The notes under the pieces: generated by a model | Told to the model about the DNA's origin: nothing | Databases searched by the model: none | Seen by the model: the letters and a program-made list of their open reading frames with translations, nothing else | Translations under genes and position numbers: made by a program | Part shown: piece after piece, positions 5,375 to 64,000 of the stretch | Numbering within the stretch: position 1 is the stretch's first letter | How the letters are laid out: the number at the start of each line of letters is the position of its first letter | NCBI GenBank assembly: GCA_965248925.1 | Contig: CBDFLE010000006.1 | Coordinates: 4,064,001-4,128,000, forward strand | Reading direction: 5' to 3' | Length of the DNA stretch: 64,000 nucleotides | DNA from: Candidatus Multivoradales bacterium | GTDB lineage: Bacteria > Acidobacteriota > Thermoanaerobaculia > Multivoradales > J023

Positions 5375-5411
5375 GTGGCCACCGGGCCTGGAGGGAAAGA
5401 GGAAACTGGCG

Positions 5412-6341: not shown

Positions 6342-6363
6342 GGCGCGGCTTGGTTGGCTCGGT

Positions 6364-7176: not shown

Positions 7177-7252
7177 GCGATAGTCCGGCGGCATCGGGCG
7201 CTGGGTCGAGCCCGATGCACTGGTGGCGAGAGCCGAGTAGGGCGCAGCAGCC

Positions 7253-7501
7253 CTAGGCTTTCTTGACTAAGCCGACGAGGAAGAGCAGCACCACCGCGCC
7301 GATCAAGGCAGTGAGGATCGAGCCTAGCATTCCGCTGAAGAAGGAGATGCCGAGAGCGCCGAAGATGAAGCCGCCCAGAATGCCACCGAGGATGCCGACA
7401 ACAATGTTGCCGAGCATTCCAAAGCCGCGGCCCTTCATCACCTGGCCGGCAAGAAAGCCGGCGATCGCACCGACGATCAGTTGGTAGAGAATAGTCATCA
7501 A
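7253..7501 (-). CDS. GlsB/YeaQ/YmgE family small membrane protein
   Basis: 82 aa, three Gly-rich TM helices, GAIAGFLAG...NIVVGILGG. Confidence 0.88.
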   Translation of the reverse strand: MMTILYQLIVGAIAGFLAGQVMKGRGFGMLGNIVVGILGGILGGFIFGALGISFFSGMLGSILTALIGAVVLLFLVGLVKKA

Positions 7502-7746
7502 GATCTCCTTGTTGGTTGTTCCAGATCATGGCGCCTAAGAGTCGTGGGACCGGGTCCGCAAACCGAGGTCTCAGCTGAGCCTTGATCAGCAGCCCCATTT
7601 CTTCGGGCACATCCCAACCGAGTTGCCGCGGAGGGCACATTCACCTTCAGCTGGTCCCAGAAAGGCGAGACGGCGGATACTGGAAGTTGTGGCTGCATCT
7701 TACACCAACCTTTAGGCTCCGGCCTCCGCGGAGTACCGGCGGCGGC

Positions 7747-39821: not shown

Positions 39822-39893
39822 GCTGATTGAGGTGCCAGTCACATTTGTGATTGAGGTGCCTGCTGATTGAGGTGCCAGTCACATTTGTGATTG
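39822..39893. repeat. Direct repeat of 32 bp, period 40 (GCTGATTGAGGTGCCAGTCACATTTGTGATTG)
   Basis: Copies at 39822-39853 and 39862-39893, plus a partial third TGATTGAGGTGCC between them. Confidence 0.85.
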
Positions 39894-48924: not shown

Positions 48925-49245
48925 TCACCCGACGGCATGCGCCGGAATCTTCTCCAGCTCTGCGCCGAGCCGCCTCTCTGCGTGCCAGAGATCGTAAGCC
49001 TGCTGCATCCGCAGCCAGAGCCCCGGTCCGTTGCCACAGAATCTACCGAGCCGAACGGCCATCTCCGGGCTGATGCCAGACTTGCCGGCCAGAACTCGGT
49101 GGAGAGTCTGGCGGGTCACTCGCAGCTCTCGTGCTGCCGCGGTGACCGACAGGTTCAGCGCCGGCAGCACGTCCTCGCGCAGGATCTCGCCAGGATGGGT
49201 TGGTGGCCGGTCGCGCCGTGCGCCACCTCTCAGGTCTTTAGACAT
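48925..49245 (-). CDS. higA: HigA antitoxin
   Basis: PTHPGEILRE, HTH, ISPEMAVRL, WLRMQQAYDL. Confidence 0.92.
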   Translation of the reverse strand: MSKDLRGGARRDRPPTHPGEILREDVLPALNLSVTAAARELRVTRQTLHRVLAGKSGISPEMAVRLGRFCGNGPGLWLRMQQAYDLWHAERRLGAELEKIPAHAVG

Positions 49246-49537
49246 CTCGTTCACCTCGCTGGTGGTATTGCTCCAAGTCCAGGTGCATGGCCCGCTTATT
49301 CTCCCAGCCGAAGGTGATGGACCAGGGGCCGTTGACGTGCAAGCTATACCTCGTTGGCTTGCCCCTCAGAGCATGGAAGTTGAATCCTGGCAGGTTCAGC
49401 TCAGACAGCTCCTCGGCAGAATCGAGAGCGTCCAGTCTGCGGAGTGCGCGGGTCTGGAGATCGGATCTCATCCGCCGGCTCCTACCGCGTTCTGAAAGCT
49501 CTTTGAGACCCTTGTGCCGGAAGCTCTTGATCACCAT
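49238..49537 (-). CDS. higB: HigB (RelE-like) toxin
   Basis: IKSFRHKGL, FHALRG, SLHVNGPWSITF, EQYH; toxin-first gene order. Confidence 0.9.
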   Translation of the reverse strand: MVIKSFRHKGLKELSERGRSRRMRSDLQTRALRRLDALDSAEELSELNLPGFNFHALRGKPTRYSLHVNGPWSITFGWENKRAMHLDLEQYHQRGERDV

Positions 49538-50011: not shown

Positions 50012-52543
50012 ATGACCCTCAACCACCACATTCTGCCAGCTGCCAACCCGAGCGCCAGGCTCAGCGGCTGGCGTCTATTGGCAGTCTGGGTGTTGATCTG
50101 CGCAACCGCGGCCTGCGGCACGGAAGAGCAGCTCCCCGAGGCCCCTGCCTTGGCCGGCGAGAGCATAGGGGATTTGGCGACCTCGCCAGATATTCGCTGT
50201 GGCCACCATCTCGAGCAAGGTGAGAATCAGTTGGCCCGCGCGGTCTGCGAGGAGGCGGTCGAGCAGGCTAGGCGGGACGCCAACCCGCGGCTCGAAGCCT
50301 CGGCGCTCAGCAAACTCGGCCAAGCCTGGCATGCGTCGGGCGATTTGCAGCGCGCCCTTGAACTCTACGGTCAGTCCCGTGACCTGGCGACCGCGGTTGG
50401 CGCGAGGGATTTGGCGACGGCTGCCGGGCACAACCTGGCGGTGTTGTTCGGTTCGGTAGGGCGCTACGACGATGCGGCTGAGCAGTTGCGGCGAGTAGTT
50501 TCGCAGCATGCTCCCGGTCCGGAACGGGCTGTGAGCACCATGACCTTCGGTCTGGCCCTGGTGGATAGTGGGCGGTTGCAGGAGGGCCTTGCTACCTACC
50601 ACCAAGCGCTCCAGCGACTGCGGGCTAGCGGCCAGACCGCCTACCTGGCGTTGACCCATGATCTGCGCGGCAAGTTGCTACTCCAGCTGGGTCGCCCGGA
50701 GGAGGCTCTAGCGCAGCATCAGCTGGCACTGCGGCTGATCAGAGAGACCGACGCCGTGCCCATCAAGGCCCATATTCACCTCAGCCTGGGCCTGCACTAT
50801 CAGCAGCGCGGCGACTGTGCGGCTGCCCGGCAATCCTTACGCCATGCCCGGCAGCTCTTCACCGAGCAGGGAAACGACGCCGCGGTGGCCGAGGGTGTGC
50901 CGGCAGAGGCACGTTGTCTGGCGTCGCAAGGCCACTGGCAGGAGGCTGAAGGTATATTGAATGAGGCGATGGAGAAGATCGAAGCGATGCGGGCTCGCCT
51001 TGCCCAACCCTCAATGCGGGGCGACTACCTGGGCTCCCGCTTTGGCATTTTTGGTACCGCGGTAGAGCTGGCCATGGAGCGTCATCGCGCCGAGCCTGGG
51101 GCTGGTCACGATGAGCGCGCCTTCGAACTCGCCGAAGGTGCTCGGGCTCGCACCCTGCTCGACCAACGGGTGAGGGTCGAACAGCGTTCGCGCTGGCGTT
51201 CCGACAGTGAGGAGGGGCGCCTGCGTCAGCGGCTCAGTGAGCTGGAAAATCGCCAGCTTCGTGCTCAGCTCGCTGGCCGCGAGCCAGCAGCGGAGTTGAA
51301 TCAGCGGATCGAGCAGCTCTACCAGCGCATCGATCGTCTCACCGGTCCCTTGCCACTCACCACGCCGCCCCTTGACTTGGCGACGATCCAAGCGGAGATC
51401 CTCGAGCCTGGGACCGTCCTCTTGAGCTTTCTATTGGGCAGCGAGCGCAGTCATCTGTGGTGGATCGAGCACAACGATCTGCACAGCTTCGAGCTGCCGG
51501 GTGTCGAGATCATCGATCGCTTGGCGCGCCAGGTACACCGCTCTTTGGCCAGTCCGGCGGATGCTGCCGGCGCTGACCAGCGCGAGCTCGATTTGAGGGA
51601 TCTCAGTGGTTTGTTGCTCGGCCCGGTGGCCGAGCGGTTAGCAGGGCAGCGCCTGCTGGTGGCGGCCGATGGCGCGCTGCATTACTTGCCCTTTGCGGTG
51701 CTTGCCCATCCGCTTACCGGCGAGCCCCTGGTGATGGAGCACGAGGTGGTTCACCTGCCCGCCGCGTCGTTGCTGGTGGCGCAGCGGCGGCGGCTAGTCG
51801 ATCGTTCGCCGGCCAAAGGTTGGTTAGCGGCGATCGGCGATGCAGTCTTCGATGCTGACGATCCCAGGTTGTCGGCAGCCGGTGCTGGCGTTGTGGTGCC
51901 GGGAACCGAGGAAACAGCTACGGCCAGCCGGGCGCTTGCCGGCCTGGGCATTGCGGGCTTGCGGCGATTGCCATTCTCGGGTCGTGAGGTAGAAGCCATT
52001 GGCAAGTCAGGCAAGCGAGAGGATGAGGTACTGCCCGCCACTGGCTTCGCCGCCACCCGCGAGCTGCTGCTCGGCGGCGGTGTGCGAGGTTTTCGCATTA
52101 TCCATCTGGCCACGCACGGGGTGTTCGACACTAGCCATCCTGAACGGTCCGGCTTGGTGTTCTCGCTTTTTGATCGCCAGGGGCGCCCGATCGATGGTTT
52201 GGTGCAGGCTCACGACATCACTGACCTCGACTTGCCCGCCGAGTTGATCGTGCTGAGCGCTTGCCGGACGGCACTTGGCAAAGAAGTACGTGGCGAGGGT
52301 TTGATGGGCCTCACCCAAGCGTTCTTTCAGGCCGGTGCCGCTCGCTTGATAGTCAGTTTCTGGCGCATTCCCGATCGTTCGACCGCCGAGTTGATGGGTC
52401 GTTTCTACCGTCACCTGGGTGAGGGCGGCCTGGCCCCAGGGGCGGCACTCCAGCAGGCCCAACGCTCGATGTATCAGGAGGGGTACGCCCCGCACCAATG
52501 GGCCAGCATGGCCCTGATCGGCGATTGGCGAGCCTTCGAATAG
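50012..52543 (+). CDS. TPR-CHAT (caspase-like) protein, possibly a lipoprotein
   Basis: TPR repeats, AEGARARTLLD, DGALHYLPF, HLATHG, LSACRT, SFWRIPD, HQWASM. Confidence 0.9.
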   Translation: MTLNHHILPAANPSARLSGWRLLAVWVLICATAACGTEEQLPEAPALAGESIGDLATSPDIRCGHHLEQGENQLARAVCEEAVEQARRDANPRLEASALSKLGQAWHASGDLQRALELYGQSRDLATAVGARDLATAAGHNLAVLFGSVGRYDDAAEQLRRVVSQHAPGPERAVSTMTFGLALVDSGRLQEGLATYHQALQRLRASGQTAYLALTHDLRGKLLLQLGRPEEALAQHQLALRLIRETDAVPIKAHIHLSLGLHYQQRGDCAAARQSLRHARQLFTEQGNDAAVAEGVPAEARCLASQGHWQEAEGILNEAMEKIEAMRARLAQPSMRGDYLGSRFGIFGTAVELAMERHRAEPGAGHDERAFELAEGARARTLLDQRVRVEQRSRWRSDSEEGRLRQRLSELENRQLRAQLAGREPAAELNQRIEQLYQRIDRLTGPLPLTTPPLDLATIQAEILEPGTVLLSFLLGSERSHLWWIEHNDLHSFELPGVEIIDRLARQVHRSLASPADAAGADQRELDLRDLSGLLLGPVAERLAGQRLLVAADGALHYLPFAVLAHPLTGEPLVMEHEVVHLPAASLLVAQRRRLVDRSPAKGWLAAIGDAVFDADDPRLSAAGAGVVVPGTEETATASRALAGLGIAGLRRLPFSGREVEAIGKSGKREDEVLPATGFAATRELLLGGGVRGFRIIHLATHGVFDTSHPERSGLVFSLFDRQGRPIDGLVQAHDITDLDLPAELIVLSACRTALGKEVRGEGLMGLTQAFFQAGAARLIVSFWRIPDRSTAELMGRFYRHLGEGGLAPGAALQQAQRSMYQEGYAPHQWASMALIGDWRAFE

Positions 52544-52799
52544 CGGCCCCAAGCCCCCTGGCCACCTACCCGTTCTGGTCGCGCATTCTGCCCAATGCGG
52601 CTCCATCCCGGCGATCGACAATACGTTCCGTCTTGATCCCACCAGACCTCTCAGGGCAATTCCGACGTGTACTCGAGGTTCTTCGGGTACTGGAGTCTGA
52701 GTTCTTGTCTTAATCCCACCAGACCTCTCAGGGCAATTCCGACCAAGCTGCACGGCGTCTGAGGTGCTCCCCATGGTTCTACCACGGCCAATGAGAGTT

Positions 52800-53645
52800 T
52801 TAGCACACTCTCATTTCTTGCTTGCTCATCGCACCAGCAAACTCAGCCGGCGGTAGGTTCCCCAACGAGCTGTGGGGACGTACATGGTTGTAGTCTATTC
52901 GCCAGTGCTCGATCTTGCGGCGAGCGTCTACTAAGTTCGTGAACCAGTGCAGGTTGCGGCACTCATCTCGCAGGCGGCCATTGAAGCTCTCCACAATACA
53001 GTTTTCGATGGGCTTGCCGGGCCGAATAAACAACAAGGTGACGGCGTTCTGGTAGGCCCACTCATCCAAGGCTCTGCTAGTAAACTCCGGGCCGTTGTCC
53101 ACCACAATCCGGTGCGGGTATCCTCGACTCTCGGCAACGCGATCTAGTACTCGGGCCACACGATGACCCGACAGGGACGTATCGACCTCGATAGCTACAC
53201 ACTCTCTCGTTGCCTCGTCCACAACGTTGAGAGCTCGGAAGCAGCGTCCACCTGCCAAAGTGTCGCTGATGAAGTCCATCGACCACTGCTCATTGGCTTG
53301 CTCAGGAACGACTCGCGGCAAGCGGTTTGCCTGCGCTACTCGCTTGCGCTTCCGGCGCCGCACAGCGAGCCCCAGGGCCTTGTAGAGCCGATAGACGCGC
53401 TTATGGTTGATCTGCTTGCCTTCGCGTCGTAGCAGCACATGCAGGCGCCTGTAGCCAAAGCGTGGCCGCTCGCCAGCGAGCTCTAGGAGTCTTTCCACTA
53501 CCTGTTCTTCATCAGGATTCTCTTGGCGGTGATAGCGCACCATCGAGCGACAGGTAGTCGCCAGACGGCACGCTCGGCGCTCACTACAACTGCGGCGCTC
53601 CCGGATCCACTCGACTGCCTCACGCCGGGTCGCGGGCGTCACCAT
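52800..53645 (-). CDS. IS3 transposase OrfB (DDE)
   Basis: [41 protein letters not shown]. Confidence 0.93.
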
Positions 53646-53905
53646 TTTCTCGACAGGGCTTCTTTGAGCACTTGCTTGTCCAGAGTTAACTCGGCAACAG
53701 CGACCTTTAGCCGCCGATTCTCCTGCTCTAGCTCTCGCAGTCGACGCGCCTCGCTGACCCCCATGCCACCGAACTTCGACTTCCACCGGTAGTAGGTTCC
53801 TTGGGACACGCCGTGTTCCCGGCATACGTCCTTCACTCGCTGCCCCGACTCCACTTGGTCGAGAACTCGGATGATCTGCTCTTCACTAAATCGGCTCTTG
53901 CGCAT
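53639..53905 (-). CDS. IS3 transposase OrfA (HTH)
   Basis: [12 protein letters not shown]...[31 protein letters not shown]. Confidence 0.93.
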
Positions 53906-55860
53906 CGGCTCCTCCTCATGCCCAGTCTCTCATTTTGACTGGACCAGAATTCGGGGAGCACCTCACGTCAACACCATCCCTCGAGACGGAACCTGTCTTA
54001 ATCCCACCAGACCTCTCAGGGCAATTCCGACTCGAAAGAGGTGTTCGAAAATGGCCAAGCAAAGCCAGAGTCTTCATCCCACCAGACCTCTCAGGGCAAT
54101 TCCGACGACTTTTTTTTGGGGACACGATTCTGGGTATTCTGTCCCGTCTTCATCCCACCAGACCTCTCAGGGCAATTCCGACAGTGACGAGTGGCGGATG
54201 GTATTTGATTTGTCCGCAACGTCTTCATCCCACCAGACCTCTCAGGGCAATTCCGACTGGCTGACATTCCCATTCCTGACAGGATGGTGATGGAGGGTCT
54301 TCATCCCACCAGACCTCTCAGGGCAATTCCGACGCACGGAAGCAGTGGCCCGTGAGGCACAAGCCTCGCTGTCTTAATCCCACCAGACCTCTCAGGGCAA
54401 TTCCGACCGGACGAGACGGTTTTCGTCGTCACCGAGATCCTGGCTACAGTCTTAATCCCACCAGACCTCTCAGGGCAATTCCGACCGTTCAATTCCAGCG
54501 GCGCGGTTGCAGGCGAGTTCCACCGTCTTAATCCCACCAGACCTCTCAGGGCAATTCCGACAAGGCCGAGTGCTGCCGATCAACGGTGACTCCACCAACG
54601 TGTCTTAATCCCACCAGACCTCTCAGGGCAATTCCGACCACCTCTTTCGGGATGGTGGGATGATCATCACTTCTTGGTTGTCTTAATCCCACCAGACCTC
54701 TCAGGGCAATTCCGACTTGAACGGGATAGCATATATTTCATCCATCTCAGGATCAGTCTTAATCCCACCAGACCTCTCAGGGCAATTCCGACATAACAAT
54801 TGAAGAGTGCAAGCTAAAGTTTAAGGAAGGTCTTAATCCCACCAGACCTCTCAGGGCAATTCCGACCGAGTATGCAACGGGGAACCTTGTTGGAATCAGT
54901 GATGAGGGTCTTAATCCCACCAGACCTCTCAGGGCAATTCCGACAAGGCCGAGTGCTGCCGATCAACGGTGACTCCACCAACGTGTCTTAATCCCACCAG
55001 ACCTCTCAGGGCAATTCCGACCACCTCTTTCGGGATGGTGGGATGATCATCACTTCTTGGTTGTCTTAATCCCACCAGACCTCTCAGGGCAATTCCGACT
55101 TGAACGGGATAGCATATATTTCATCCATCTCAGGATCAGTCTTAATCCCACCAGACCTCTCAGGGCAATTCCGACATAACAATTGAAGAGTGCAAGCTAA
55201 AGTTTAAGGAAGGTCTTAATCCCACCAGACCTCTCAGGGCAATTCCGACCGAGTATGCAACGGGGAACCTTGTTGGAATCAGTGATGAGGGTCTTAATCC
55301 CACCAGACCTCTCAGGGCAATTCCGACTCTATTTGGAGGCCCTCTATTTGGAGGCCCTCGAGAAAATCGTCTTAATCCCACCAGACCTCTCAGGGCAATT
55401 CCGACTGTTTTGGGGGGTTTTACGCAACTTGGCAGGATTGGAGAGTCTTAATCCCACCAGACCTCTCAGGGCAATTCCGACAGCGTAGACGCAGGAGGCG
55501 GCAAGTATGTGGGTGGCCCGTCTTAATCCCACCAGACCTCTCAGGGCAATTCCGACCTTCCTTATGTTCCAACAGTCGGTCGGGTCAGTCAACCGTCTTC
55601 ATCCCACCAGACCTCTCAGGGCAATTCCGACGCACGGAAGCAGTGGCCCGTGAGGCACAAGCCTCGCTGTCTTAATCCCACCAGACCTCTCAGGGCAATT
55701 CCGACTTTCGATACTTAAATTCAGCGCCAAACTGGCATTTAAGCGTCTTAATCCCACCAGACCTCTCAGGGCAATTCCGACGTAAAGGTTCTCCTCGATC
55801 CTACTCCACTTACGTCTTTGTGTGTCTTAATCCCACCAGACCTCTCAGGGCAATTCCGAC

Positions 55861-56058
55861 CCCTGCCTCTGTAAGTGGCTCATTCTATTGAGTTTAAGTG
55901 TCTCGTTTCTGTACCCTCTATTTTCTGTTAGCAAAACCATTCGAAAAGTTACCCGTAAGTGCCTCTGCTCAAGAGGCTATCCCACTGAATCAAAGCCACT
56001 TACAGGTATTTGTGTATCCTCCGGTCAAAACTGGCTTGAGAGCCTGGTATGCTCTTTG
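55861..56058 (-). promoter_or_regulatory. CRISPR leader
   Basis: AT-rich, next to the terminal consensus repeat; 12-bp inverted repeat CTGTAAGTGGCT (55869-55880) / AGCCACTTACAG (55994-56005). Confidence 0.75.
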
Positions 56059-56406
56059 CTAGTTAGCACCTTCCAGCTTCTGGCGCAGCCTGAAATCACG
56101 CCGTAAGGCTTGATCATCAGCCTGCGTGGCCGAATAGAGGGTTTGGATCGCTTCATTCAGCGACTCCTGCCGCACCCCGCCGATGATGGCGTAGAGGTGC
56201 ATACCCAGATCATGCGGCAGCTGGTCCTCGCCCATTTGTTGGCTATCCACGGGGATAGGCAGCATTCGACTGAGCTGGAACAGATGCTGATCGCAGCGCT
56301 GTAGCGAGATGACCAACTCGAGCAACTTGCTCTGCGCTTTGGCCAAGTCCAGCGGGCCATTTTGCCCCTGGAGGTTGATTGAGGTAGAGTAGTCGGAATC
56401 CGACAT
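56059..56406 (-). CDS. Hypothetical helical protein (115 aa) between cas1 and the leader
   Basis: AGGGAGG RBS before ATG at 56406; amphipathic helical sequence. Confidence 0.65.
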   Translation of the reverse strand: MSDSDYSTSINLQGQNGPLDLAKAQSKLLELVISLQRCDQHLFQLSRMLPIPVDSQQMGEDQLPHDLGMHLYAIIGGVRQESLNEAIQTLYSATQADDQALRRDFRLRQKLEGAN

Positions 56407-56533
56407 AGGGCTTCCTCCCTGTGTGGGATGGCTCGGTGAGTATTCGAAGTATTCACCGGGCCGTTTGGTGAAAGGTCTGGTGGGACCTACTTTCATCTGT
56501 TGATCAATCATGAGTCGATCGACGAAAGCGACT

Positions 56534-56577
56534 TCATATCTAGTTGGAGTATATGAGATGTCGGTCATTCTTGTCAA
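56534..56577 (-). promoter_or_regulatory. sigma70-like promoter TTGACA-N18-TATACT with overlapping TCATAT...ATATGA inverted repeat
   Basis: -35 at 56577-56572, -10 at 56553-56548. Confidence 0.55.
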
Positions 56578-56587
56578 GCCATTCCGG

Positions 56588-57577
56588 TCAAGTACCCATG
56601 CGAAAGCCATTGTATTCGACTCCCTCTAGAGCCTCTCTGTAGCGCTCTACTTGGCGACGAAAGAGCTCACGGTAGCAGAGCCGAGCACCGCCGACGGAAA
56701 CCTCACCTTCGAGTGCCTTCTCCCAAGCCGGGAAGAATCTTTTTTGACCCAAACGGGTCAGCCGAACACCTTTGTTGGGATGTTTTCGAAAATGCTCAAG
56801 CCGCAGGATCTTTGTTCTGACCAGGCGGAGCACGAAACGATCGACCAATGGGGCTCGAAACTCCTCGAGTAGATCCAAGGCCAAGGACGGCCGCCCGTAT
56901 TGAGTTTGATGCAGCACCCCCAGGTAGGGATCAAATCCCATGCCGTCCAGCAACGCCTGCAGCTCCACGCCGGCCAAGACATAGGCGAATGAGAGTAGCG
57001 CGTTGACCGGGTCCGGGGGAGGGCGGCGTTTGCGGCCTGGGAACTCGAACGGCGCCGGGATGAGCTTGGCCAGCAGAGAGAAGTGGCGGCGGGCAGCGGC
57101 TCCCTCGGTGCCCAGCAAAGACCCCATCGAACCCGCTTCGAGAGCCTGAGCGGCGGCTGATTTCAGCTCGCGAATCTCGCTCAGCGGGACTTCCTTGGGA
57201 TGGTTGCCGCGAAACCGCTGCCACACAGCCGCCGCTCCGCGGATCTTGTTGCTGACCAGACGACGGCTCAGATCGAGGCAGAAGTCAGGATCGACCGATC
57301 TTTCGTACTGCCGCAGACGAAGATGGACATTCTTGGTCTCTGGCGGTGTTAGCTGGCCGCGGAGGCGGCCGTTGCGCGATAGCAAGGCTAGCTCAATGCC
57401 GTGGTCCAGCATCTCTACCGCCGCCTGCGTGGTAAACTGAACGTTGCCGAATAGCATTACTGTGGTCAGCTTCCTGCACGGCACTTCGAGCAAGATGCGG
57501 TCGTCCTTTTCTACATAAAGACGGTCACTGGTTTTGCGGACGATCGCTTGCTGTTCGGTGATGTAGAGGGTTGTCAT
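56588..57577 (-). CDS. cas1: CRISPR-associated endonuclease Cas1
   Basis: TLYITEQ, LLGTEG, RRPPPDPVNALLS, DPYLGVLH, LALDLLEEFR. Confidence 0.96.
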   Translation of the reverse strand: MTTLYITEQQAIVRKTSDRLYVEKDDRILLEVPCRKLTTVMLFGNVQFTTQAAVEMLDHGIELALLSRNGRLRGQLTPPETKNVHLRLRQYERSVDPDFCLDLSRRLVSNKIRGAAAVWQRFRGNHPKEVPLSEIRELKSAAAQALEAGSMGSLLGTEGAAARRHFSLLAKLIPAPFEFPGRKRRPPPDPVNALLSFAYVLAGVELQALLDGMGFDPYLGVLHQTQYGRPSLALDLLEEFRAPLVDRFVLRLVRTKILRLEHFRKHPNKGVRLTRLGQKRFFPAWEKALEGEVSVGGARLCYRELFRRQVERYREALEGVEYNGFRMGT

Positions 57578-58533
57578 ATCGAACTCTCCTTGCTGGCGAC
57601 CGAGCGCAGCTCGATATAGCGTCGTAGCCCAAGAGCCTGGGGCAGCGACGGCCGGCGCCGCTCTCGCTTCGCAGTGTCGAATGGGCGATAGATGGCATCG
57701 CCCACGAAGAGGGCGCCGAGAAAGCGAAAGCCACGCTCGAAGTTAGTCACCGAGGTCTTGGTGGGTTCGAGCAGCAGCTCCAGCTCGGCCAGCAACTCAT
57801 CGGCTACTCCCAGGGCGGTTTCGGCAGCAGGCTCGTCGCGGCAGAGGAGAATGAAGTCGTCGCCGTAGCGAACCGCCTGTTGACCGCGTCGCATCAGCTC
57901 CTCGTCGAACCGGTCGAGAAAGAGGTTGGACAGCATCGGTGAGACCACAGACCCCTGCGGTAGGCCCGCTTTGAGCTGCCAGATCGAAGTCCCATCGTAG
58001 ACTTCGGCGCAGACCCACAGCTCGATCAGAGTTTCTAAGTAAGGGTGAAGAGAGAGTTCCTTGACCCGACCCATCAATAGCCGATGGTCTACGCTGTCGA
58101 AAAAGTCGTCGATATCGGCGTCGACCACCCAGCGGAAACCGCGATCACGAAGATCTCTGACTCGCAACACCGCGTCTCTGACCGAGCGCCCGGTTCGATA
58201 GGCGAAGCTGCTGTCCTCGAAGCTAGCTTCGAAGCGTTCGCGACAGAGGAGATAGACGGCGCTCTGGGCGACCCGGTCGCGCACCGTCGGCACGCTCAAC
58301 CAGCGCTGACCGCCGTTCGGCTTGCCGACCGCAAAGCGCATCAGCGGCAGAGGGCAATAGACCCGGCGCGCCAGTGAGTTGGCGAGATCGTCGAGTTCGT
58401 AGTCCAAGCGGGCTCTGAAGCCGCCAAGATCCTGCCCATCGCAGCCGCGGCAGCCGCCGTTCTTGGCCACCCGCTCGAAGGCTCGGTGAAGCAGGCCGCA
58501 GGACGTCAGCTCTGCCATCAGTTCGTCGTTCAC
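57574..58533 (-). CDS. CRISPR-associated stand-alone reverse transcriptase (group II intron RT-like)
   Basis: GCDG, PTVRDRVAQ, SFAYR, DADIDDFFD, GLPQGSVVSPMLSN, RYGDDF, FRFLG; 4-nt overlaps with cas2 and cas1. Confidence 0.93.
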   Translation of the reverse strand: MNDELMAELTSCGLLHRAFERVAKNGGCRGCDGQDLGGFRARLDYELDDLANSLARRVYCPLPLMRFAVGKPNGGQRWLSVPTVRDRVAQSAVYLLCRERFEASFEDSSFAYRTGRSVRDAVLRVRDLRDRGFRWVVDADIDDFFDSVDHRLLMGRVKELSLHPYLETLIELWVCAEVYDGTSIWQLKAGLPQGSVVSPMLSNLFLDRFDEELMRRGQQAVRYGDDFILLCRDEPAAETALGVADELLAELELLLEPTKTSVTNFERGFRFLGALFVGDAIYRPFDTAKRERRRPSLPQALGLRRYIELRSVASKESSI

Positions 58534-58805
58534 AGGACGTAGACCTCCGGGTCATGGGTTAGCTCGCCGACCCCGAGAATCCGTACTCGCGGATGGCATT
58601 GCCCGCATAGCAGGTAGAGCCGCAAGCTGTCGACTTCTGGGTCGATCTCACGGGCTGTCGCGGCCTCCAGCTCCGCGATGCCCGTCGGCTCCAACCAGCA
58701 CTCGAAGACCGACAGCTGGACCCGCCGGCCGAAATCCTCGAGCCGGTGCGCCAGCCGGGTGCGGCGGCGGTCGTCTGAGATGTCATAAGAAATCAGCACT
58801 AGCAT
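58530..58805 (-). CDS. cas2: CRISPR-associated Cas2
   Basis: MLVLISYDISDDRRR...RVQLSVFEC...DSLRLYLLCGQC. Confidence 0.95.
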   Translation of the reverse strand: MLVLISYDISDDRRRTRLAHRLEDFGRRVQLSVFECWLEPTGIAELEAATAREIDPEVDSLRLYLLCGQCHPRVRILGVGELTHDPEVYVL

Positions 58806-58968
58806 CAAGGGCTCCAGCAGCCGGCGAAGTTCCAAATCGGCCGGCTCTGATTGGGTAGACCCCATCTCTCGGCCCGAGGGTGGAGAAGAATTCCGAAATA
58901 ATCTGCCGGATTCGACGCCCTGCTCCAACTTTGGTTCCGGCTTCGCTTATTTGGTCCATAATCTGTGC

Positions 58969-60969
58969 ATGGACTACCAAAATCTGTGGATCAACTTGCA
59001 GTCGCGGGGAGAGGAAGAGATCGTTGTCGAGCATATGGTGAAGCACCCGAGCGGGGACCGGCCGCTGCGGCTCGCGTTTGCCGTGGGTGATATTCAGCGC
59101 CGCCTCGCCGAGCTCGAGAAGTTGATCATCACCTGCGCGTCACAGAACCCTGATCCGAAGGTGGCCCTTGATACCGCGGAGGCCACCAAGCTGGCTAGCG
59201 CGAAAGCCAAGCTCGCTGAGTTGCAGGAAGAGCTGGGTTGCAGCTTGTATGAGGCGATCTTCTACGAACACCATGCGGGGATCGTCGCCGACCTCTGGCA
59301 CAAGCACAAGAGCCTCCGCCTGCGGCTGACCATCGATCCCAGCGATAGCAGGGTCGCGCCGCTACTCAGCTTGCCGTGGGAGCTGATGCGAGCAAGGGAG
59401 CAAGGCGATGCCTATGCTCGACTCCGTCAGACTCCCATGGTGAGGTACGGGATAGTTCCCCGCCAAGTTGTCGAGAGTCTTGCCGGGGAGGTCGGGGAGC
59501 TGCCCGAGTCTCCCGAGCTACGGGTCCTCTTTGCCGCTGCTTCTCCCGACCAGCCCGAGCGGGCGATCGACATCGACGGTTTCCGAGAGTGGCTGGAGCA
59601 AGGTATGGCGAGCGCTCAGAAGCTCGCGCCCAAGGTGCTTTCGCAGACCACAATCCAGTCTCTGGATGCGGCGTTGCGGGACTCAGAACCTCACATCTTG
59701 GTGTTGCTCAGTCACGGAGTGTTCGATCCGCAAGACGGCATCGGCTATTTGGGTCTAAAGGATCAGGATCAGGATATGGCCTCTGTGACCGACTCCGCAT
59801 TTGCCGAGATTCTCAAGGGCAAGGCCTCCCTGCGTCTGGTAGTTCTGGCGACCTGCTCCGGTGGGGCCTTGCGTCGGCGGGGTGATCAGCATCCCTATGC
59901 CAATGTTGCGGCGGCATTGTTGCTAGCCGGAATGCCCGCGGTCATTGCGATGCAGCACCCGATATCTGAGGAGGCGGTGCGGACGTTCTGCCGCGCCATG
60001 TTCGCCGATCTGGCCAAGAACTTGCCGGTAGAGGCCGCTGTTGCGGCGGGCCGCATGGCGATCTACCAGCACCCGACACACAGCCTGGAGTGGGCCACGC
60101 CGGTTCTGTTTAGCCGCGCGGACGATGGCCGGTTGGTCGCCTTGCCGGAAGAGCCGGAAGAGCAGGAACTCGGATTGGACTACGGGCAGCGGTTGCCGCT
60201 GCGGGCCGCTATTCGCAGCATCGGCCGCGGCTGGGGAGTCGAAATCGAGCAGCAGGGGCTGGCGGACCGATGGCTCAAGCTTGAAGATCACTTCCGGCCC
60301 GATCGTTTTAGGGTTCTCAAGAACCCGGATGCCTGGAATACGGTGCTATTTCCCGCGGTTGCCGACTTTCTCGAACAGGTGAGGTCAGAAGGCCGGCCCG
60401 TAGAGCTTATCTTGCCCTGTTGCGGCAGCCTCGCGTTCGCTGCCGGCTATTCAATGGAAAGATGCAACGTGCCGGTATCGGTGGTTCAGCGGGCCCGCTC
60501 CAAACGCTTCTTTCTCTGGCCCGATCGGGGACCAGAGGATGGCAAGGGTTGCGAAGGTCCGGATTGGCGGGTCGAAGAGCGGGAACTCGGCGAGCAGGGA
60601 GGCCTCGCTGTGGCACTGAGCGTGTCGACGCCAATCCACAAACATCTGAATAGCTTTATTGACCACCAACGCTTCCCAGCAGTCCGCCGGGTAGTTTGGT
60701 TCGAGCCCGAGGGCGGAGCCCACCCAACGGCGATCTTCGGGGCGGCACATGCGCGCAGACTAGTTCAGGACTTGATGCTCTGGCTGCTCAAGAACGTGAC
60801 GGTCGAAGAAGAGAAGGCGGGCCTGCACATCTTCTTTGCGGCCCCCAACAGCCTGATGTTCTATCTCGGCCAGCAGGCGGCGAGCCTGTCCCGAGTACAG
60901 ATCTGGGAACTACCATTCGGCATGGGTAGACCCGGAGAGTATGATCCGGCGATCCGGCTGCCCCTCTGA
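58969..60969 (+). CDS. CHAT-SAVED fusion (predicted cyclic-oligonucleotide-activated caspase-like protease)
   Basis: LPWELM, LSHG, LVVLATC, VIAMQHPI, EWATPVLF (CHAT); SLAFAAGY, AVALSVS, LHIFFAAPNSLMFYLGQ (SAVED). Confidence 0.88.
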   Translation: MDYQNLWINLQSRGEEEIVVEHMVKHPSGDRPLRLAFAVGDIQRRLAELEKLIITCASQNPDPKVALDTAEATKLASAKAKLAELQEELGCSLYEAIFYEHHAGIVADLWHKHKSLRLRLTIDPSDSRVAPLLSLPWELMRAREQGDAYARLRQTPMVRYGIVPRQVVESLAGEVGELPESPELRVLFAAASPDQPERAIDIDGFREWLEQGMASAQKLAPKVLSQTTIQSLDAALRDSEPHILVLLSHGVFDPQDGIGYLGLKDQDQDMASVTDSAFAEILKGKASLRLVVLATCSGGALRRRGDQHPYANVAAALLLAGMPAVIAMQHPISEEAVRTFCRAMFADLAKNLPVEAAVAAGRMAIYQHPTHSLEWATPVLFSRADDGRLVALPEEPEEQELGLDYGQRLPLRAAIRSIGRGWGVEIEQQGLADRWLKLEDHFRPDRFRVLKNPDAWNTVLFPAVADFLEQVRSEGRPVELILPCCGSLAFAAGYSMERCNVPVSVVQRARSKRFFLWPDRGPEDGKGCEGPDWRVEERELGEQGGLAVALSVSTPIHKHLNSFIDHQRFPAVRRVVWFEPEGGAHPTAIFGAAHARRLVQDLMLWLLKNVTVEEEKAGLHIFFAAPNSLMFYLGQQAASLSRVQIWELPFGMGRPGEYDPAIRLPL

Positions 60970-61014
60970 GGCTGAGTCGCAAGAGAAGGGGCAGCCGGGC
61001 TCTGCTCAATCGGC

Positions 61015-61176
61015 CTACGGCGTGTCATCCGCCGGCTGCTTGGTTTTCTCTTCTGCCGGCTGTGCGTCGTGGTCCTGTGACATTTTGCCGGTCGCCTTGC
61101 TCTTCTTGCCAGGTACATCCATGCCGAGAATCCAAGCTCCCTTCTGGCTCATTGTTTGTTCTGGGTCATCGCACAT
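61015..61176 (-). CDS. Small 53-aa hypothetical peptide
   Basis: AGGAG-N6-ATG; MCDDPEQTMSQKGAWILGMDVPGKKSKATGKMSQDHDAQPAEEKTKQPADDTP; not in the supplied ORF track. Confidence 0.55.
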   Translation of the reverse strand: MCDDPEQTMSQKGAWILGMDVPGKKSKATGKMSQDHDAQPAEEKTKQPADDTP

Positions 61177-61226
61177 CGCGAACTCCTACGGTTTGTTGTC
61201 AGTGGTTACGTCTCCATGCTGCGCTA

Positions 61227-61976
61227 CTATCTTCCCCCCGTGTGGTCGCTCATGAATTGAGGCACTCCCTCATGGGCGTCGCTAGGTTCAAGAATCAAGC
61301 CCTTTCGCCCTCCTTTTTCGCCTTTGCCAACGACGTAGATTGATGAGACTGCACATTCTTCGGCAGCTTGGAAGGCGCCGATCGACATGGGCACCGTGCC
61401 GCCTGTGGTGTCGACAAAAATGCGGTGGCGGTGAATGCCAAGACGCTTGAAACGGTCAACGAAGTGCAGTGCCATTCGCCGGCTGTCTTCTGGATTGTGC
61501 GGATCATCAAGCCAGAAACCGCCGCGGTCGATCTCGGCAACTGGCGGGTAGATCTCTACCCGATCGGCGAAGCTGCGAGCCAACTTGGCGGCGATCTTCT
61601 GAGTTTGTTCAGTGTATAGAAATGCCACGCGCTCGGGCTGTAGGTGACGCAAGATCCACTCCGGCTGCTCGCGGCGGCTGACCGGGACCACCATCGCATC
61701 GACCTGCTGTTCGAGGATTGCAAGCCGAACGCCTGCGTTGGCGAACTCACGGCGTCGCACCCAGCGCCGCACTAGACGGCGCACCGAGCCGCGTTCGATC
61801 AAGGCGAGTAGAAACCCCGCCGCACCTAGACAACTCCAGGCGAAGCTGAGCAGGATTCCGGCATGATCGAAGGCATCAATCCAACCCGGCGAAAAAAGCT
61901 TGGAGAAGAGGACCGCCGCAGTGGCAATTGCCAGGAAGAAAGCAGCGGTCAGTAGGATTGTGCGTAGCTTGGGCAT
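61227..61976 (-). CDS. Transmembrane-CARF effector (Cam1/Cam2-like)
   Basis: Two N-terminal hydrophobic helices; CARF motifs VVPVS..QPE, VAFLYT, IFVDTTGGTVPMSIGAF. Confidence 0.82.
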   Translation of the reverse strand: MPKLRTILLTAAFFLAIATAAVLFSKLFSPGWIDAFDHAGILLSFAWSCLGAAGFLLALIERGSVRRLVRRWVRRREFANAGVRLAILEQQVDAMVVPVSRREQPEWILRHLQPERVAFLYTEQTQKIAAKLARSFADRVEIYPPVAEIDRGGFWLDDPHNPEDSRRMALHFVDRFKRLGIHRHRIFVDTTGGTVPMSIGAFQAAEECAVSSIYVVGKGEKGGRKGLILEPSDAHEGVPQFMSDHTGGR

Positions 61977-61990
61977 GATCCTACTCCCGC

Positions 61991-63127
61991 TCAGGGTTTT
62001 TCACCCAACAGGCGGATGATCTTGAGAGTCCGCATATGCGGCTTGTCGTTTCGCGCTTTGCCCAGAAGGCGCGGGCGCCAGTGATCTTGCGCCAGCATCA
62101 GTTCCTTTGCCTTGCGGGCGGCGCGCAGTAGCTCGTCGCCCTGCCAGGTGTTCTTGTAAAGCCCCTCGACAATCAACTCGTAGTCGGGCTTCTTGCGGCG
62201 AATCGCTTTTTCGGCGAGCTTGGCGAGGGAGCGGTCGAAAGGATCGAGGGCGGCATATCCGGCGTGGCGTTCCTGGGTGTCGAGCTGTCGTTCGAGCCTG
62301 GAGAGGATTCTCTTGTCTCCGGGAATCAGCTGGCCATAACCTGCCGCGGTCTTGGCGCCAGCTCCCAGCAGGTCAAGGGCCTGGCGCATCTCTGCAAAAG
62401 CCGCCGGCACCTCGGCACGGGCTGTCTCCGTGCGGGCCGCTATCTGGACGAGGAATGATGGCTGCTTGGCCACCAGGAACTTCACCGGGTTGGGACTGTG
62501 AAAATCCCCAGGCAGAAGCTCGGCGGAGTCGGCCGAATCGATCTCCTCGATTTGATCACCGCGCTCGTACCACTTGCCCATGTGCGGTGTCATCACATCT
62601 ACTACCAGCGATGGTGCGGTGATCGGTAGTGCATCGAAGAAGATCAGATCGCCGGCTCGATCGGGCTTGCCGGGTTGCTCGGGCTCACCCAACCAGCGGC
62701 GACGGCGCTCTTGGCATAGCTCAGCGGTTTCTCCGGACCATTCCTCGAGCCACCCCCGCAGTATGCCCTTGACCGCCGTGCCGGTCAGATAGGGGACTCC
62801 CAGCGTAGGGTGCCAGGCAAAACCATTCTCCAGCGGGTGCGGCAGACCGAGGCCGGATGCGAAGTGCCAGCTGGCCTGAAGCTCACGGCTCTCGGCCCCG
62901 AGCGAACGGCCCAGACGCAGCAGGCGTAGGGCCGTCGCTTCGGGTAGCTCCGTGTCGCTACAGGTGGCCTGTGCCAAGTCTCTAAGCCAGTGATTCTTGG
63001 TGTCGGGATCGTCGAGAGTCCAACCTTCTTCATAGCGAAAGAAGCGGCTGTGCCAGAGGCCCAGATGGGCGCCGGCCGGTGGTCTGTTGGGAGCGCCATG
63101 GCCACGGTATAGGGGCAGCTCAGTCAT
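61991..63127 (-). CDS. cmr6: Type III-B RAMP Cmr6
   Basis: LENGFAWHPTLGVPYLTGTAVKG, FFDALP, DVMTPH, PNPVKFL, GAGAKTAAGYG. Confidence 0.95.
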   Translation of the reverse strand: MTELPLYRGHGAPNRPPAGAHLGLWHSRFFRYEEGWTLDDPDTKNHWLRDLAQATCSDTELPEATALRLLRLGRSLGAESRELQASWHFASGLGLPHPLENGFAWHPTLGVPYLTGTAVKGILRGWLEEWSGETAELCQERRRRWLGEPEQPGKPDRAGDLIFFDALPITAPSLVVDVMTPHMGKWYERGDQIEEIDSADSAELLPGDFHSPNPVKFLVAKQPSFLVQIAARTETARAEVPAAFAEMRQALDLLGAGAKTAAGYGQLIPGDKRILSRLERQLDTQERHAGYAALDPFDRSLAKLAEKAIRRKKPDYELIVEGLYKNTWQGDELLRAARKAKELMLAQDHWRPRLLGKARNDKPHMRTLKIIRLLGEKP

Positions 63128-63548
63128 CACTGGCCTCCTCGCTCTCTGACTGGTTGTCCTCGTCCAAGAAGGCTGTTGCGAATTTGCGCACCCACTCCAT
63201 CAGGGCCATGGCCTCGGTTTGGGCGACCCGATAGTGAAACATCTTGGTCTTGGTGATGCCGGTCAGCAGATCGTCGTATTCCTCCAGAGGCTGGCCGGCC
63301 TGTGTCATCCACTCCGAGACAATGTTGTACAGCTCGCCGTGACTGCCGCCCTTCATTTTGCTGAAAGCAGCTGCCTGGCCGAGCCCATTCATGCGAATCA
63401 TGGCTGGCAACTCTTGGGCGTAGGCGCGAAACTCCTTGGCCTTGAGTTCGTTCGCGGCGATCTTCGTATTGACGGTGTTGATGATCCGTTTGAGGGCGAA
63501 CGCTGCGCGTCGCTGTTCGATGGTTTGCGGTACGGCTGCGGGGTCCAT
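63120..63548 (-). CDS. cmr5: Type III-B small subunit Cmr5
   Basis: TIEQRRAAFA, LPAMIRMNGLGQA, EAMALMEWVRKFA. Confidence 0.93.
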   Translation of the reverse strand: MDPAAVPQTIEQRRAAFALKRIINTVNTKIAANELKAKEFRAYAQELPAMIRMNGLGQAAAFSKMKGGSHGELYNIVSEWMTQAGQPLEEYDDLLTGITKTKMFHYRVAQTEAMALMEWVRKFATAFLDEDNQSESEEASDD

Positions 63549-63550
63549 GC

Positions 63551-64000
63551 TCAGCCCTCCACGGTGGGGAGTTGAACTCGGCACCAGCCCATGCCAACGG
63601 TTTCGTTACCTCCGAGCTGTAGGTAAGGCTGCTCGCCGAAGAGCTGAGCTAGGGTTTCACTCAGCACCTGAGCCGAACTCTTCTTCAGATCGCTACGCGA
63701 GGCCCACGCGGCCAGCGCTACGTAGAGCAGAGTGTCTGGCGGCAGGGTTTCCTCATACCAGAGGGCGCCGGATTCCACCGTCTTCGTCTTGTTGTCGATC
63801 CGCACATGCGCTGCCACAGGAACCGCGAAGCGGGCCAGATATCCGAACAGGTCGTCGTCGACGACGGCCAGCTGCTCGCTCAAGCGATCTCCAGCTTGGG
63901 GATCGGGGAACAGGTCGGCGAGCTCCCCTATCACGCTAGTGAGATCCCCGGTGACGACCTCCAGGCGAAACTCCTCGAGGAAGAGCAGGCTGTCGCTACT
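63551..64000 (-). CDS. cmr4: Type III-B RAMP Cmr4 (3' part; runs off window end)
   Basis: HVRID..T.TVESGALWYEETLPPDTL, QLGGNETVGMG. Confidence 0.95.
   Translation of the reverse strand, partial: SSDSLLFLEEFRLEVVTGDLTSVIGELADLFPDPQAGDRLSEQLAVVDDDLFGYLARFAVPVAAHVRIDNKTKTVESGALWYEETLPPDTLLYVALAAWASRSDLKKSSAQVLSETLAQLFGEQPYLQLGGNETVGMGWCRVQLPTVEG

Follow-up and report, generated by a model that had tools for sequence, protein, structure and literature searches.

Composition of the type III-B locus

This analysis concerns a type III-B CRISPR locus at the end of a 64,000-nucleotide stretch of a Candidatus Multivoradales genome (assembly GCA_965248925.1, contig CBDFLE010000006.1, positions 4,064,001 to 4,128,000; hereafter the window), where two putative sensors of cyclic oligoadenylates (cOAs), a Cam1-like membrane protein and a CHAT-SAVED protease, are accompanied by a reverse transcriptase (RT) adaptation module and flanked by genes suggestive of a sigma factor switch. 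A first-pass annotation of the window had listed cmr4-cmr5-cmr6, a transmembrane (TM) CARF protein, an inverted CHAT-SAVED gene, cas2-RT-cas1, a leader and an array, all of which were found by open reading frame (ORF) listing, repeat finding and family scans. Coordinates are window positions; those beyond 64000 are window-equivalent (L001 position plus 63000) and refer to the next 19 kb of downstream sequence, which was added to the analysis.

The interference genes lie on the minus strand in the order cas6-cmr1-cas10-cmr3-cmr4-cmr5-cmr6, and NCBIfam and Pfam profiles matched all six of Cmr1 to Cmr6 (Cmr2 being Cas10) in this one operon. The window holds cmr6 (61991-63130; TIGR01898, E 4.4e-27), cmr5 (63120-63584; Pfam Cas_Cmr5, E 8.5e-28) and part of cmr4 (from 63551 onward, the whole gene encoding 310 amino acids (aa) and reaching 64483; TIGR02580, E 1e-66). 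The first-pass annotation had suggested looking past position 64000 for the remaining genes and had made its signalling proposal depend on a Cas10 with a cyclase motif. That sequence contains cmr3 (64471-65676), cas10/cmr2 (65673-67670, 665 aa; Pfam Cas10-Cmr2_palm2, E 1e-31), cmr1 (67667-68857) and cas6 (68854-69897), and the translated Cas10 keeps the cyclase motif GGDD within 'YAGGDDVLAM'. Its Cmr2_N domain, at residues 6-108, forms the protein N-terminus; no HD family match was found in Cas10, the HD domain being optional in type III-B systems. Judged by its sequence, the locus is a complete, cyclase-competent, HD-less type III-B (Cmr) system, and since the HD nuclease is missing, defence must go through cyclase signalling and sensor proteins. 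Both effector genes encode recognised cOA-sensor domains (CARF and SAVED, respectively). No ring nuclease, a further component that had been proposed for inspection, was recognised among the scanned ORFs of the window and downstream sequence by Pfam, NCBIfam or PADLOC.

Two candidate cyclic oligoadenylate effectors

The first candidate effector, TM-CARF (61227-61976, minus strand, 249 aa), is a Cam1-family protein with two N-terminal TM helices, predicted from hydrophobic segments at residues 4-30 and 39-61. It matches the PDB entry of Cam1 (8t64) over residues 68-217 with an E-value of 8.9e-16 (phmmer), as well as the PADLOC profiles CARF8--CARF_TM (E 7.8e-30) and 'CARF, 2 TMs' (E 1.8e-18). 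With Cam1 of Nitrosococcus halophilus (NhCam1; PMC10808066) it has in common a homologous CARF domain, an N-terminal membrane anchor and a terminal place in a type III-B cmr operon, whereas the 206-aa NhCam1 is described as having one helix. NhCam1 is reported to bind cyclic tetra-adenylate (cA4) and not cyclic tri-adenylate (cA3), with S75, N76, T97, K160, Y180 and T183 named as cA4-contacting residues (PMC10808066). In the phmmer alignment S75, T97 and Y180 are kept in TM-CARF, but the two proteins differ at the other three of these six positions (N76 to R, K160 to T and T183 to G). The kinship of its CARF domain to that of Cam1 points to cA4 as a candidate ligand of TM-CARF.

The subfamily of about 240-250 aa to which TM-CARF belongs comprises 97 homologous clusters in a large protein collection, with members mostly from metagenome bins of other phyla. 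A scan of genome contigs with the single TM-CARF protein gave no match; an alignment-based scan then recovered 53 Cam1-like loci in species-representative genomes, many of them in type III contexts. Homologues of RT and Cas1 are both present in seven of the 53, and the association of a Cam1-like gene with RT adaptation is therefore not unusual.

The second candidate effector gene, CHAT-SAVED (58969-60969, plus strand), encodes 666 aa from ATG 58969, which is most likely the true start rather than TTG 58951. A caspase-like CHAT domain (Pfam CHAT, E 9e-23) forms its N-terminal half and a SAVED domain (E 1.1e-16) its C-terminal half, and the His249/Cys296 dyad (numbered from ATG 58969) is invariant in an alignment of 33 CHAT-SAVED homologues. 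The SAVED half matches Cap4 of Enterobacter cloacae in the PDB (E 3.4e-16) and Cap4-type PADLOC profiles (E 1e-41 and 1.9e-41, the latter SAVED3--SAVED_PDDEXK). Cap4 proteins sense cyclic trinucleotides. The PADLOC SAVED_CHAT profile (E 1.4e-13) matches the CHAT part alone. Foldseek searches with an AlphaFold model of the protein (predicted local distance difference test, pLDDT, 83) returned Cap4 first, followed by separase, Csx29 and the anti-sigma factor DdvA; SAVED-CHAT of Haliangium (8tl0) appeared at rank 38 (E 9.5e-9, 15-18% identity), and phmmer gave no match between it and CHAT-SAVED at E<=0.01. On the sequence and model comparisons, CHAT-SAVED is an independent fusion of CHAT and SAVED, of the same kind as the characterised family and not a close member of it. 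The parallel that had been drawn with the Haliangium protein thus holds for the fusion and its His/Cys dyad, but the relation is distant and there is no PCaspase in or near the locus: none of the eight Peptidase_C14 (PCaspase-type) matches in the genome lies near C6:4.11-4.14 Mb.

The genome has a second island at C6:285000-310300, of which the fetched stretch L070 covers 288500-308499. Besides a Cas10-like gene and a SMODS CD-NTase it contains another CHAT-SAVED, a TPR-CHAT gene and a sigma factor gene, and cas2-cas1-RT sets lie on both flanks. It is a twin of the window locus of the cyclic oligonucleotide-based antiphage signalling system (CBASS) type and recalls the duplicated cluster reported in Haliangium.

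The pairing of the two effectors is rare. Among 300 genomes of the order, three carry a Cam1-like gene (G000, which is the genome analysed here, G602 and G029) and two, G000 and G602, have it in one locus with CHAT-SAVED, so that the search for loci sharing the effector pair, suggested in the first-pass annotation, found one other case. Within 10 kb on either side of the Cam1-like gene, CHAT-SAVED is present in none of the 53 fetched stretches, the contig of L002 having one just past the fetched end. The gene order of the G602 locus (L002/L094) runs cas6, CHAT-SAVED, sigma, anti-sigma, TPR-CHAT, a different Cas10 accompanied by RAMP genes, Cam1-like and Uma2. A maximum-likelihood tree, built by a quick method only, did not place the G000 and G602 CHAT-SAVED proteins as sisters: the window protein has a long branch and groups loosely with members of its own family, and that of G602 falls in a well-supported clade of another family. 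The pairing of Cam1-like and CHAT-SAVED proteins probably arose more than once.

A conserved module of sigma factor, anti-sigma factor and two proteases

The two flanks of the locus bear three further genes on the plus strand that recur beside CHAT-SAVED in other genomes. To one side of the array is TPR-CHAT (50012-52543, 843 aa; Pfam CHAT, E 5.6e-59, plus TPR families); past cas6, outside the window, are the genes of a sigma factor of the extracytoplasmic function (ECF) type (70873-71517; Sigma70_r2 and r4) and of an anti-sigma factor (71540-72298, 252 aa; NCBIfam NF052375, E 7e-10). TPR-CHAT has the lipobox-like N-terminal signal RLSGWRLLAVWVLICATAAC, which under a strict pattern is also seen in 20 of 37 TPR-CHAT homologous frames, and its dyad residues are conserved among module-linked homologues (H702 in 36 of 37, C751 in all 37). 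Because this dyad protein starts with a lipoprotein-type signal, it is most likely located outside the cytoplasm; in view of the same export signal, TPR-CHAT was downgraded as a direct substrate of CHAT-SAVED in a cascade of the Haliangium type. The anti-sigma factor consists of an N-terminal anti-sigma domain of about 110 aa, predicted to be cytoplasmic, one hydrophobic, likely TM segment at about residues 113-133 and a short C-terminal domain; its strongest hydrophobic segment begins near residue 116, and that of its homologues is at about 106-161. Profile searches gave weak matches to ChrR and RslA, and the protein is without a zinc-binding His/Cys motif.

Searches with the SAVED half matched five of 401 genomes of a phylum sample and 65 of 300 genomes of the order, and 51 CHAT-SAVED loci were fetched (11 via matches to the whole protease and 40 via matches to the SAVED half). 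Their selection was non-random, favouring long contigs and good match scores, and related genera supplied many of them; the counts that follow are to be read accordingly. TPR-CHAT occurs with the sigma and/or the anti-sigma gene in 36 of the 51 loci and with both in 25, and a co-directional arrangement CHAT-SAVED>sigma>anti-sigma>TPR-CHAT is found in 21. A Cas10-family gene is near CHAT-SAVED in 35/51 loci and a CD-NTase homologue in 5/51; in six, CHAT-SAVED adjoins cmr genes and the stretch that was fetched contains no sigma module. On this comparative evidence CHAT-SAVED, the ECF sigma factor, the anti-sigma factor and the exported TPR-CHAT form a four-gene module conserved across the order. 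The first-pass annotation had treated the protease as a separate effector arm; the effector gene is there, but it belongs to this conserved module. In the window locus the four module genes, all on the plus strand, are interleaved with the CRISPR genes of the minus strand.

One relative, L089, encodes on its minus strand (4933-8979) a single 1348-aa ORF in which an anti-sigma domain, a TM segment, a small periplasmic domain and TPR-CHAT are fused. The fused anti-sigma domain has a zinc-type HxxxCxxC motif.

The genome as a whole has some 14 long TPR-CHAT paralogues, about eight of which adjoin an ECF sigma gene, and the triad of TPR-CHAT, sigma and anti-sigma genes would therefore be a general signalling cassette recruited by this island. 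Examples lie at C5:1912197-1921078, C6:461206-467537, C6:1217023-1222220 and C6:5041287-5047547. Four of the eight Peptidase_C14 (caspase-like) genes are located no more than a few kb from TPR-CHAT/sigma triads, which hints at a wider family of cassettes of envelope protease and sigma factor.

A candidate promoter motif in related loci

An element of the ECF type, approximately CCAACAA-N14-CGTGTC, is conserved upstream of CHAT-SAVED in many relatives. Across 49 loci the pattern [CT]CAAC-N14-17-[CGT]GTGT[CT] was counted 61 times, compared with an average of 13 (range 8-21) over 20 shuffles. By script, 16 loci have the motif assigned upstream of CHAT-SAVED, five upstream of cas6, three upstream of cas10 or cmr1 and two upstream of RT; beyond those 16, its coordinates place it about 45 nucleotides (nt) before CHAT-SAVED in L077 and L104. 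In G602 it precedes both cas6 and cas10. This distribution suggests that in the relatives the genes for interference and the protease, and even those for adaptation, are driven by the sigma factor.

Another conserved element, approximately GG(T/C)TCTGTGGAAAGCT, was seen 15-20 nt before the sigma start codon, in the spacer between CHAT-SAVED and sigma, in L076, L079-L082, L090, L094, L095, L099 and L112. Possible roles for it are those of an internal promoter or of a translational signal.

Relation to known systems

The nearest overall precedent for the locus is the DdvS/DdvA-regulated island of Myxococcus xanthus, and not the SAVED-CHAT/PCaspase cascade of Haliangium. The M. xanthus island is described as comprising a CD-NTase with CHAT-SAVED, ddvS-ddvA with a C25 peptidase in their operon, another CBASS and type III-B cmr genes with array; DdvA, an anti-sigma factor fused to a periplasmic TPR-CHAT, controls the island with the ECF sigma factor DdvS, for which four promoters, P1-P4, are reported (PMC11506125, PMC6061681). 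Shared with that island, as it is described in these reports, are the ECF sigma factor, the single-pass anti-sigma factor, a TPR-CHAT that bears a His/Cys dyad and is located, here by prediction, in the periplasm, a protease with N-terminal CHAT and C-terminal SAVED, and the type III-B cmr genes and array. A C25-type peptidase is also encoded nearby (39851-45715), without a homologue in other CHAT-SAVED loci. ECF-type promoters with AAC/CGT elements before defence operons are a further common trait, but only of this genome's relatives.

Among the differences, anti-sigma (252 aa) and TPR-CHAT (843 aa), the latter bearing an export signal of its own, have a gene each here, in contrast to DdvA, and are fused only in the relative L089; the anti-sigma factor lacks the zinc-binding motif; and a Cam1-like effector and an RT adaptation module have been added. 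Unlike in the Myxococcus island, no CD-NTase stands beside this CHAT-SAVED, and Cas10 is therefore the likely source of its signal. The likeness to DdvS/DdvA is one of architecture, and the reading of the window genes as a split version of that pair draws on the membrane layout of the anti-sigma factor, the exported TPR-CHAT and the L089 fusion.

With the cascade of Haliangium ochraceum (Steens et al., bioRxiv 10.1101/2023.06.23.546230) the window shares a type III-B locus, a protease combining CHAT and SAVED and a nearby sigma gene, and proteolysis of a like kind, triggered by cOAs, is to be expected; of the components described there, PCaspase (Peptidase_C14), PCi and PCk are absent from the locus, where the second protease is the exported TPR-CHAT. 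In the CalpL-CalpT-CalpS system (PMC11229360, Steens et al.), likewise of a type III-B context, a SAVED-fused protease is encoded together with a pair of anti-sigma and ECF-like sigma factors. The protease at the window locus is, in contrast to CalpL, a CHAT and not a Lon protease, the anti-sigma factor spans the membrane and has a periplasmic protease partner, and its cleavage is here only hypothetical. The combination of parts had been put forward in the first-pass annotation as not known to be characterised. The arrangement is indeed new, but every part has a described relative, the Myxococcus island being the closest. What is new is the division of the switch between separate genes, its occurrence across an unrelated order and its coupling to Cas10 rather than to a CD-NTase, with a Cam1-like effector and an RT module added in this locus.

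Proposed mechanism and alternatives

Taken together, these comparisons lead us to favour, as the best overall explanation and a reasonably probable one, a signalling type III-B island with two cOA-reading effectors and a split switch of the DdvS/DdvA kind. Cas6, Cmr1, Cas10 and Cmr3 to Cmr6 would form an RNA-guided sensor in which the binding of target RNA prompts Cas10 to make cOAs. The Cam1-like protein would bind cA4 and depolarise the membrane, and CHAT-SAVED would bind cyclic tri-adenylate, oligomerise and cleave proteins. Separately, an envelope signal would act on the periplasmic TPR-CHAT and the anti-sigma factor so as to free the sigma factor and turn on the defence genes. TPR-CHAT is probably the periplasmic partner of the anti-sigma factor, the two making up a split DdvA-like sensor; that this switch acts upstream of the defence genes we hold to be slightly better than an even proposition.

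Several observations weigh against this explanation. The ECF-type motif of the relatives was found by regular expression and position weight matrix in no intergenic region of the window locus, the matches returned by scans of the window lying only inside spacers or coding sequence. The sole ECF-like site here is a canonical-looking GGAAC-N16-CGTC at position 58938, in the divergent region between cas2 and CHAT-SAVED and upstream of cas2, but it was picked post hoc and has 129 copies in the genome without enrichment; sigma control of this particular locus is thus inferred. The four module genes are 6-10 kb apart and form no operon. Neither profile searches nor single-sequence PDB searches gave a significant match of the sigma factor, the anti-sigma factor or TPR-CHAT to DdvS/DdvA, the DdvA N-terminus reaching E 0.11. 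With some 14 TPR-CHAT paralogues in the genome, roughly eight of them beside an ECF sigma gene, the presence of one near the array could be a coincidence, at a chance of a few per cent per flank. Finally, Hoikkala et al. 2024 conclude that loci tend to use one messenger (PMC11229360).

This last point bears on the proposal, already made in the first-pass annotation, that the two effectors may answer different messengers. Two messengers are plausible, and whether the ligand of CHAT-SAVED is cyclic tri-adenylate, as against cA4, we regard as an evenly balanced question. The competing possibility is that the Cam1-like protein and CHAT-SAVED both answer cA4, one signal thereby reaching two targets. 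Hoikkala et al. 2024, in whose data set SAVED-CHAT is reported from three loci, describe mixed-signal loci as very rare, citing one case, NucC plus Cam1, and the SAVED domain of CalpL recognises cA4 (PMC11229360), as does NhCam1 to the exclusion of cA3. Opposed to this are the activation of Haliangium SAVED-CHAT by cA3 (Steens et al.) and the pairing of CHAT-SAVED with a CD-NTase homologue in 5/51 loci. The closest relatives of the window SAVED domain among profiles and structures, moreover, are of the Cap4 type, a group of cyclic-trinucleotide sensors. A single shared messenger is in our estimation possible but unlikely.

Further down the scale, and compatible with the upstream switch that we favour, is the idea that the sigma and anti-sigma factors are an output of the CRISPR response: activated CHAT-SAVED would cleave the anti-sigma factor within its cytoplasmic domain, or else the sigma factor. 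The CRISPR alarm would in this way trigger the transcription programme or feed forward on it, a prospect that we consider doubtful in either form. CalpL-CalpT/CalpS and the cleavage of PCc-sigma in the Haliangium cascade are models for such wiring, and a protease-to-sigma connection recurs in type III systems (Steens et al.). CHAT-SAVED and the N-terminal anti-sigma domain would also share the cytoplasm, and in the 21 loci with co-directional genes the protease heads the unit that includes sigma and anti-sigma. Such adjacency is, however, equally expected of a regulator and its regulon; six loci with CHAT-SAVED beside cmr genes have no sigma module in the fetched stretch; and the pair of M. 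xanthus is described as acting upstream of its island (PMC11506125). More speculative still, and a long shot in our view, is a combination of the two ideas in which two caspase-like proteases would control one anti-sigma factor from opposite sides of the membrane, TPR-CHAT from the periplasm in response to an envelope or phage cue and CHAT-SAVED from the cytoplasm in response to cyclic tri-adenylate. The alarm would then feed forward on the sigma factor driving the whole island, RT-Cas1 included, while cA4 would separately open the Cam1-like channel.

That TPR-CHAT, sigma and anti-sigma are ordinary paralogues unrelated to the CRISPR locus is improbable. Such a reading fits an 8-Mb genome rich in ECF sigma genes and in TPR-CHAT paralogues, some six of which have no sigma neighbour, and it fits the non-contiguous module genes and the missing promoter motif of the window locus. 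Both flanks nevertheless bear the very partners that accompany CHAT-SAVED in 36 of the 51 other loci, adjacency by chance was roughly estimated at 3-5% per flank and well below 1% for both, and the sister locus in G602 has all of the module genes plus a Cam1-like gene. No better placed is the notion that CHAT-SAVED is a CBASS effector left stranded after losing its CD-NTase and ignores Cas10 products, leaving only the Cam1-like protein to serve CRISPR: the second CHAT-SAVED of the genome adjoins a SMODS CD-NTase and a CBASS origin of SAVED-CHAT was inferred by Steens et al., but Cas10-family genes are far more often near CHAT-SAVED than CD-NTase homologues are (35 and five of the 51 loci), and the gene, whose dyad and SAVED domain are intact, is placed here between cmr6/Cam1-like and cas2.

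The arrangement lets one natural system test whether a single Cas10 drives two effectors via two messengers, and makes it possible to address what a CRISPR-linked CHAT-SAVED cuts without a PCaspase partner. It also bears on the generality of DdvS/DdvA-type envelope switching of defence islands, which appears here in a split form, with related copies in 65/300 genomes of an unrelated order. The promoter motifs of the relatives reach even the RT gene beside cas1; sigma control of adaptation genes, if true, would tie infection sensing to memory making.

Adaptation genes, array and neighbouring features

The adaptation genes form a minus-strand series of cas2 (58530-58928; Pfam CRISPR_Cas2, E 3e-20), RT (57574-58533, 319 aa) and cas1 (56588-57577; Pfam Cas_Cas1, E 5.8e-86). 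The CRISPR_Cas2 domain begins at residue 42, and the true start of cas2 is possibly Met42, at 58805. The RT is a stand-alone, group-II-intron-like enzyme (Pfam RVT_1, E 1.1e-31; PADLOC RT, E 1.2e-82, and Cas1_IIIb, E 5.6e-51), also matching TIGR04416 with an E-value of 1.8e-75 that is below the cut-off of that family. The RT adaptation module proposed from the window sequence is borne out by this separate gene between cas2 and cas1 and by its intact YGDD catalytic motif. Type III modules with an associated RT (Silas et al. 2017, PMC5513706; Toro et al., PMC5541045) likewise have a group-II-intron-like RT beside cas1/cas2; the RT of the window is a gene of its own and no RT-Cas1 or Cas6-RT-Cas1 fusion.

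The array, transcribed on the minus strand, has in total 27 repeats of 37 nt and 25 intact spacers, 19 of them unique, and is far beyond chance; read in that direction, its repeat ends in ATTAAGAC, and the repeat was found nowhere else in the genome. The main part (53995-55860; 25 repeats, 24 spacers of 37-42 nt) is separated from a distal end (52630-52743; two repeats and one spacer) by an insertion sequence (IS) of the IS3 family (52744-53994), which lies between two repeats, leaves a 1251-nt gap in the series and carries on the minus strand a transposase ORF at 52800-53825 (Pfam rve, E 3.7e-22; rve_3, E 6.3e-28; HTH_21). The first repeat of the distal part has a variant base (GTCTTG...), as expected for a trailer end. 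Exact duplications within the array, one of a five-unit block (54525-54824 = 54908-55207) and one of a single unit (54297-54407 = 55595-55705), could be an effect of recombination or of assembly. Contigs of four short-read runs from one sample break inside the array, and the IS forms a separate contig of 1152 nt, so that it is multi-copy; as evidence on the IS junctions or the spacer duplication, these contigs count neither for nor against. No protospacer that could bear on the possible RNA origin of spacers, raised in the first-pass annotation, was found: searches gave only short partial spacer matches in the own genome and no match in a phage collection. In the most distal spacer (52667-52706), an 18-nt stretch matches, with one mismatch, about 29 sites across the genome, which are probably part of a repeated element.

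Of the two small ORFs that had been listed in the first-pass annotation, the one of 53 aa exists at 61015-61176 (minus strand) but is unsupported as a gene, having no family match in Pfam, NCBIfam or PADLOC and no tblastn match in the fetched loci. The other, given as 56059-56610, is present, but the real gene is shorter (56059-56406, minus strand), with an identical representative protein of 115 aa, and encodes a small helical protein between cas1 and the leader. No Pfam family matched the 115-aa protein, and its best PDB match, at E 0.022, is not significant. Its family was matched in 106/300 genomes of the order, at up to 12 copies per genome, and no cas homologue was found beside its members in 11 other short loci of about 2-3 kb each. 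A role as a CRISPR accessory was rejected in view of this multi-copy distribution and of the missing cas linkage in those 11 loci, and the gene is probably not a CRISPR component. Copies of the family are often close to contig ends, and a connection with a mobile element or with a toxin-antitoxin pair is possible.

Other genes in the surroundings include a Uma2-family putative endonuclease, a candidate defence family, at 70088-70693 (L001 7088-7693; minus strand, outside the window; PADLOC PDC-S03, E 5.9e-35). A Uma2 gene is near both of the loci that have Cam1-like and CHAT-SAVED genes (10836-11435 in L002), and several paralogues exist in the genome. Encoded at 48925-49537 (minus strand) are a HigB-like toxin of 99 aa and a helix-turn-helix antitoxin of 109 aa, between TPR-CHAT and the gene of a 775-aa protein (46356-48683, minus strand) with repeated Dickkopf-like cysteine-rich modules and long poly-glycine runs between them. 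The C25-type peptidase at 39851-45715 (plus strand) is a surface-type protein of 1954 aa with DUF11, SdrD repeats and a C-terminal Peptidase_C25 domain (E 2e-55). It and the cysteine-rich protein were rejected as partners of the locus, their linkage not being kept in other CHAT-SAVED loci.

The leader (55861-56058, minus strand) is a 198-nt, AT-richer region between the 115-aa gene and the first repeat. A near-consensus promoter of the sigma-70 type (56577-56548, minus strand; TTGACA-18-TATACT, 11/12) is located within the end of cas1, directed toward the 115-aa gene and the leader, and could drive constitutive transcription of the array.

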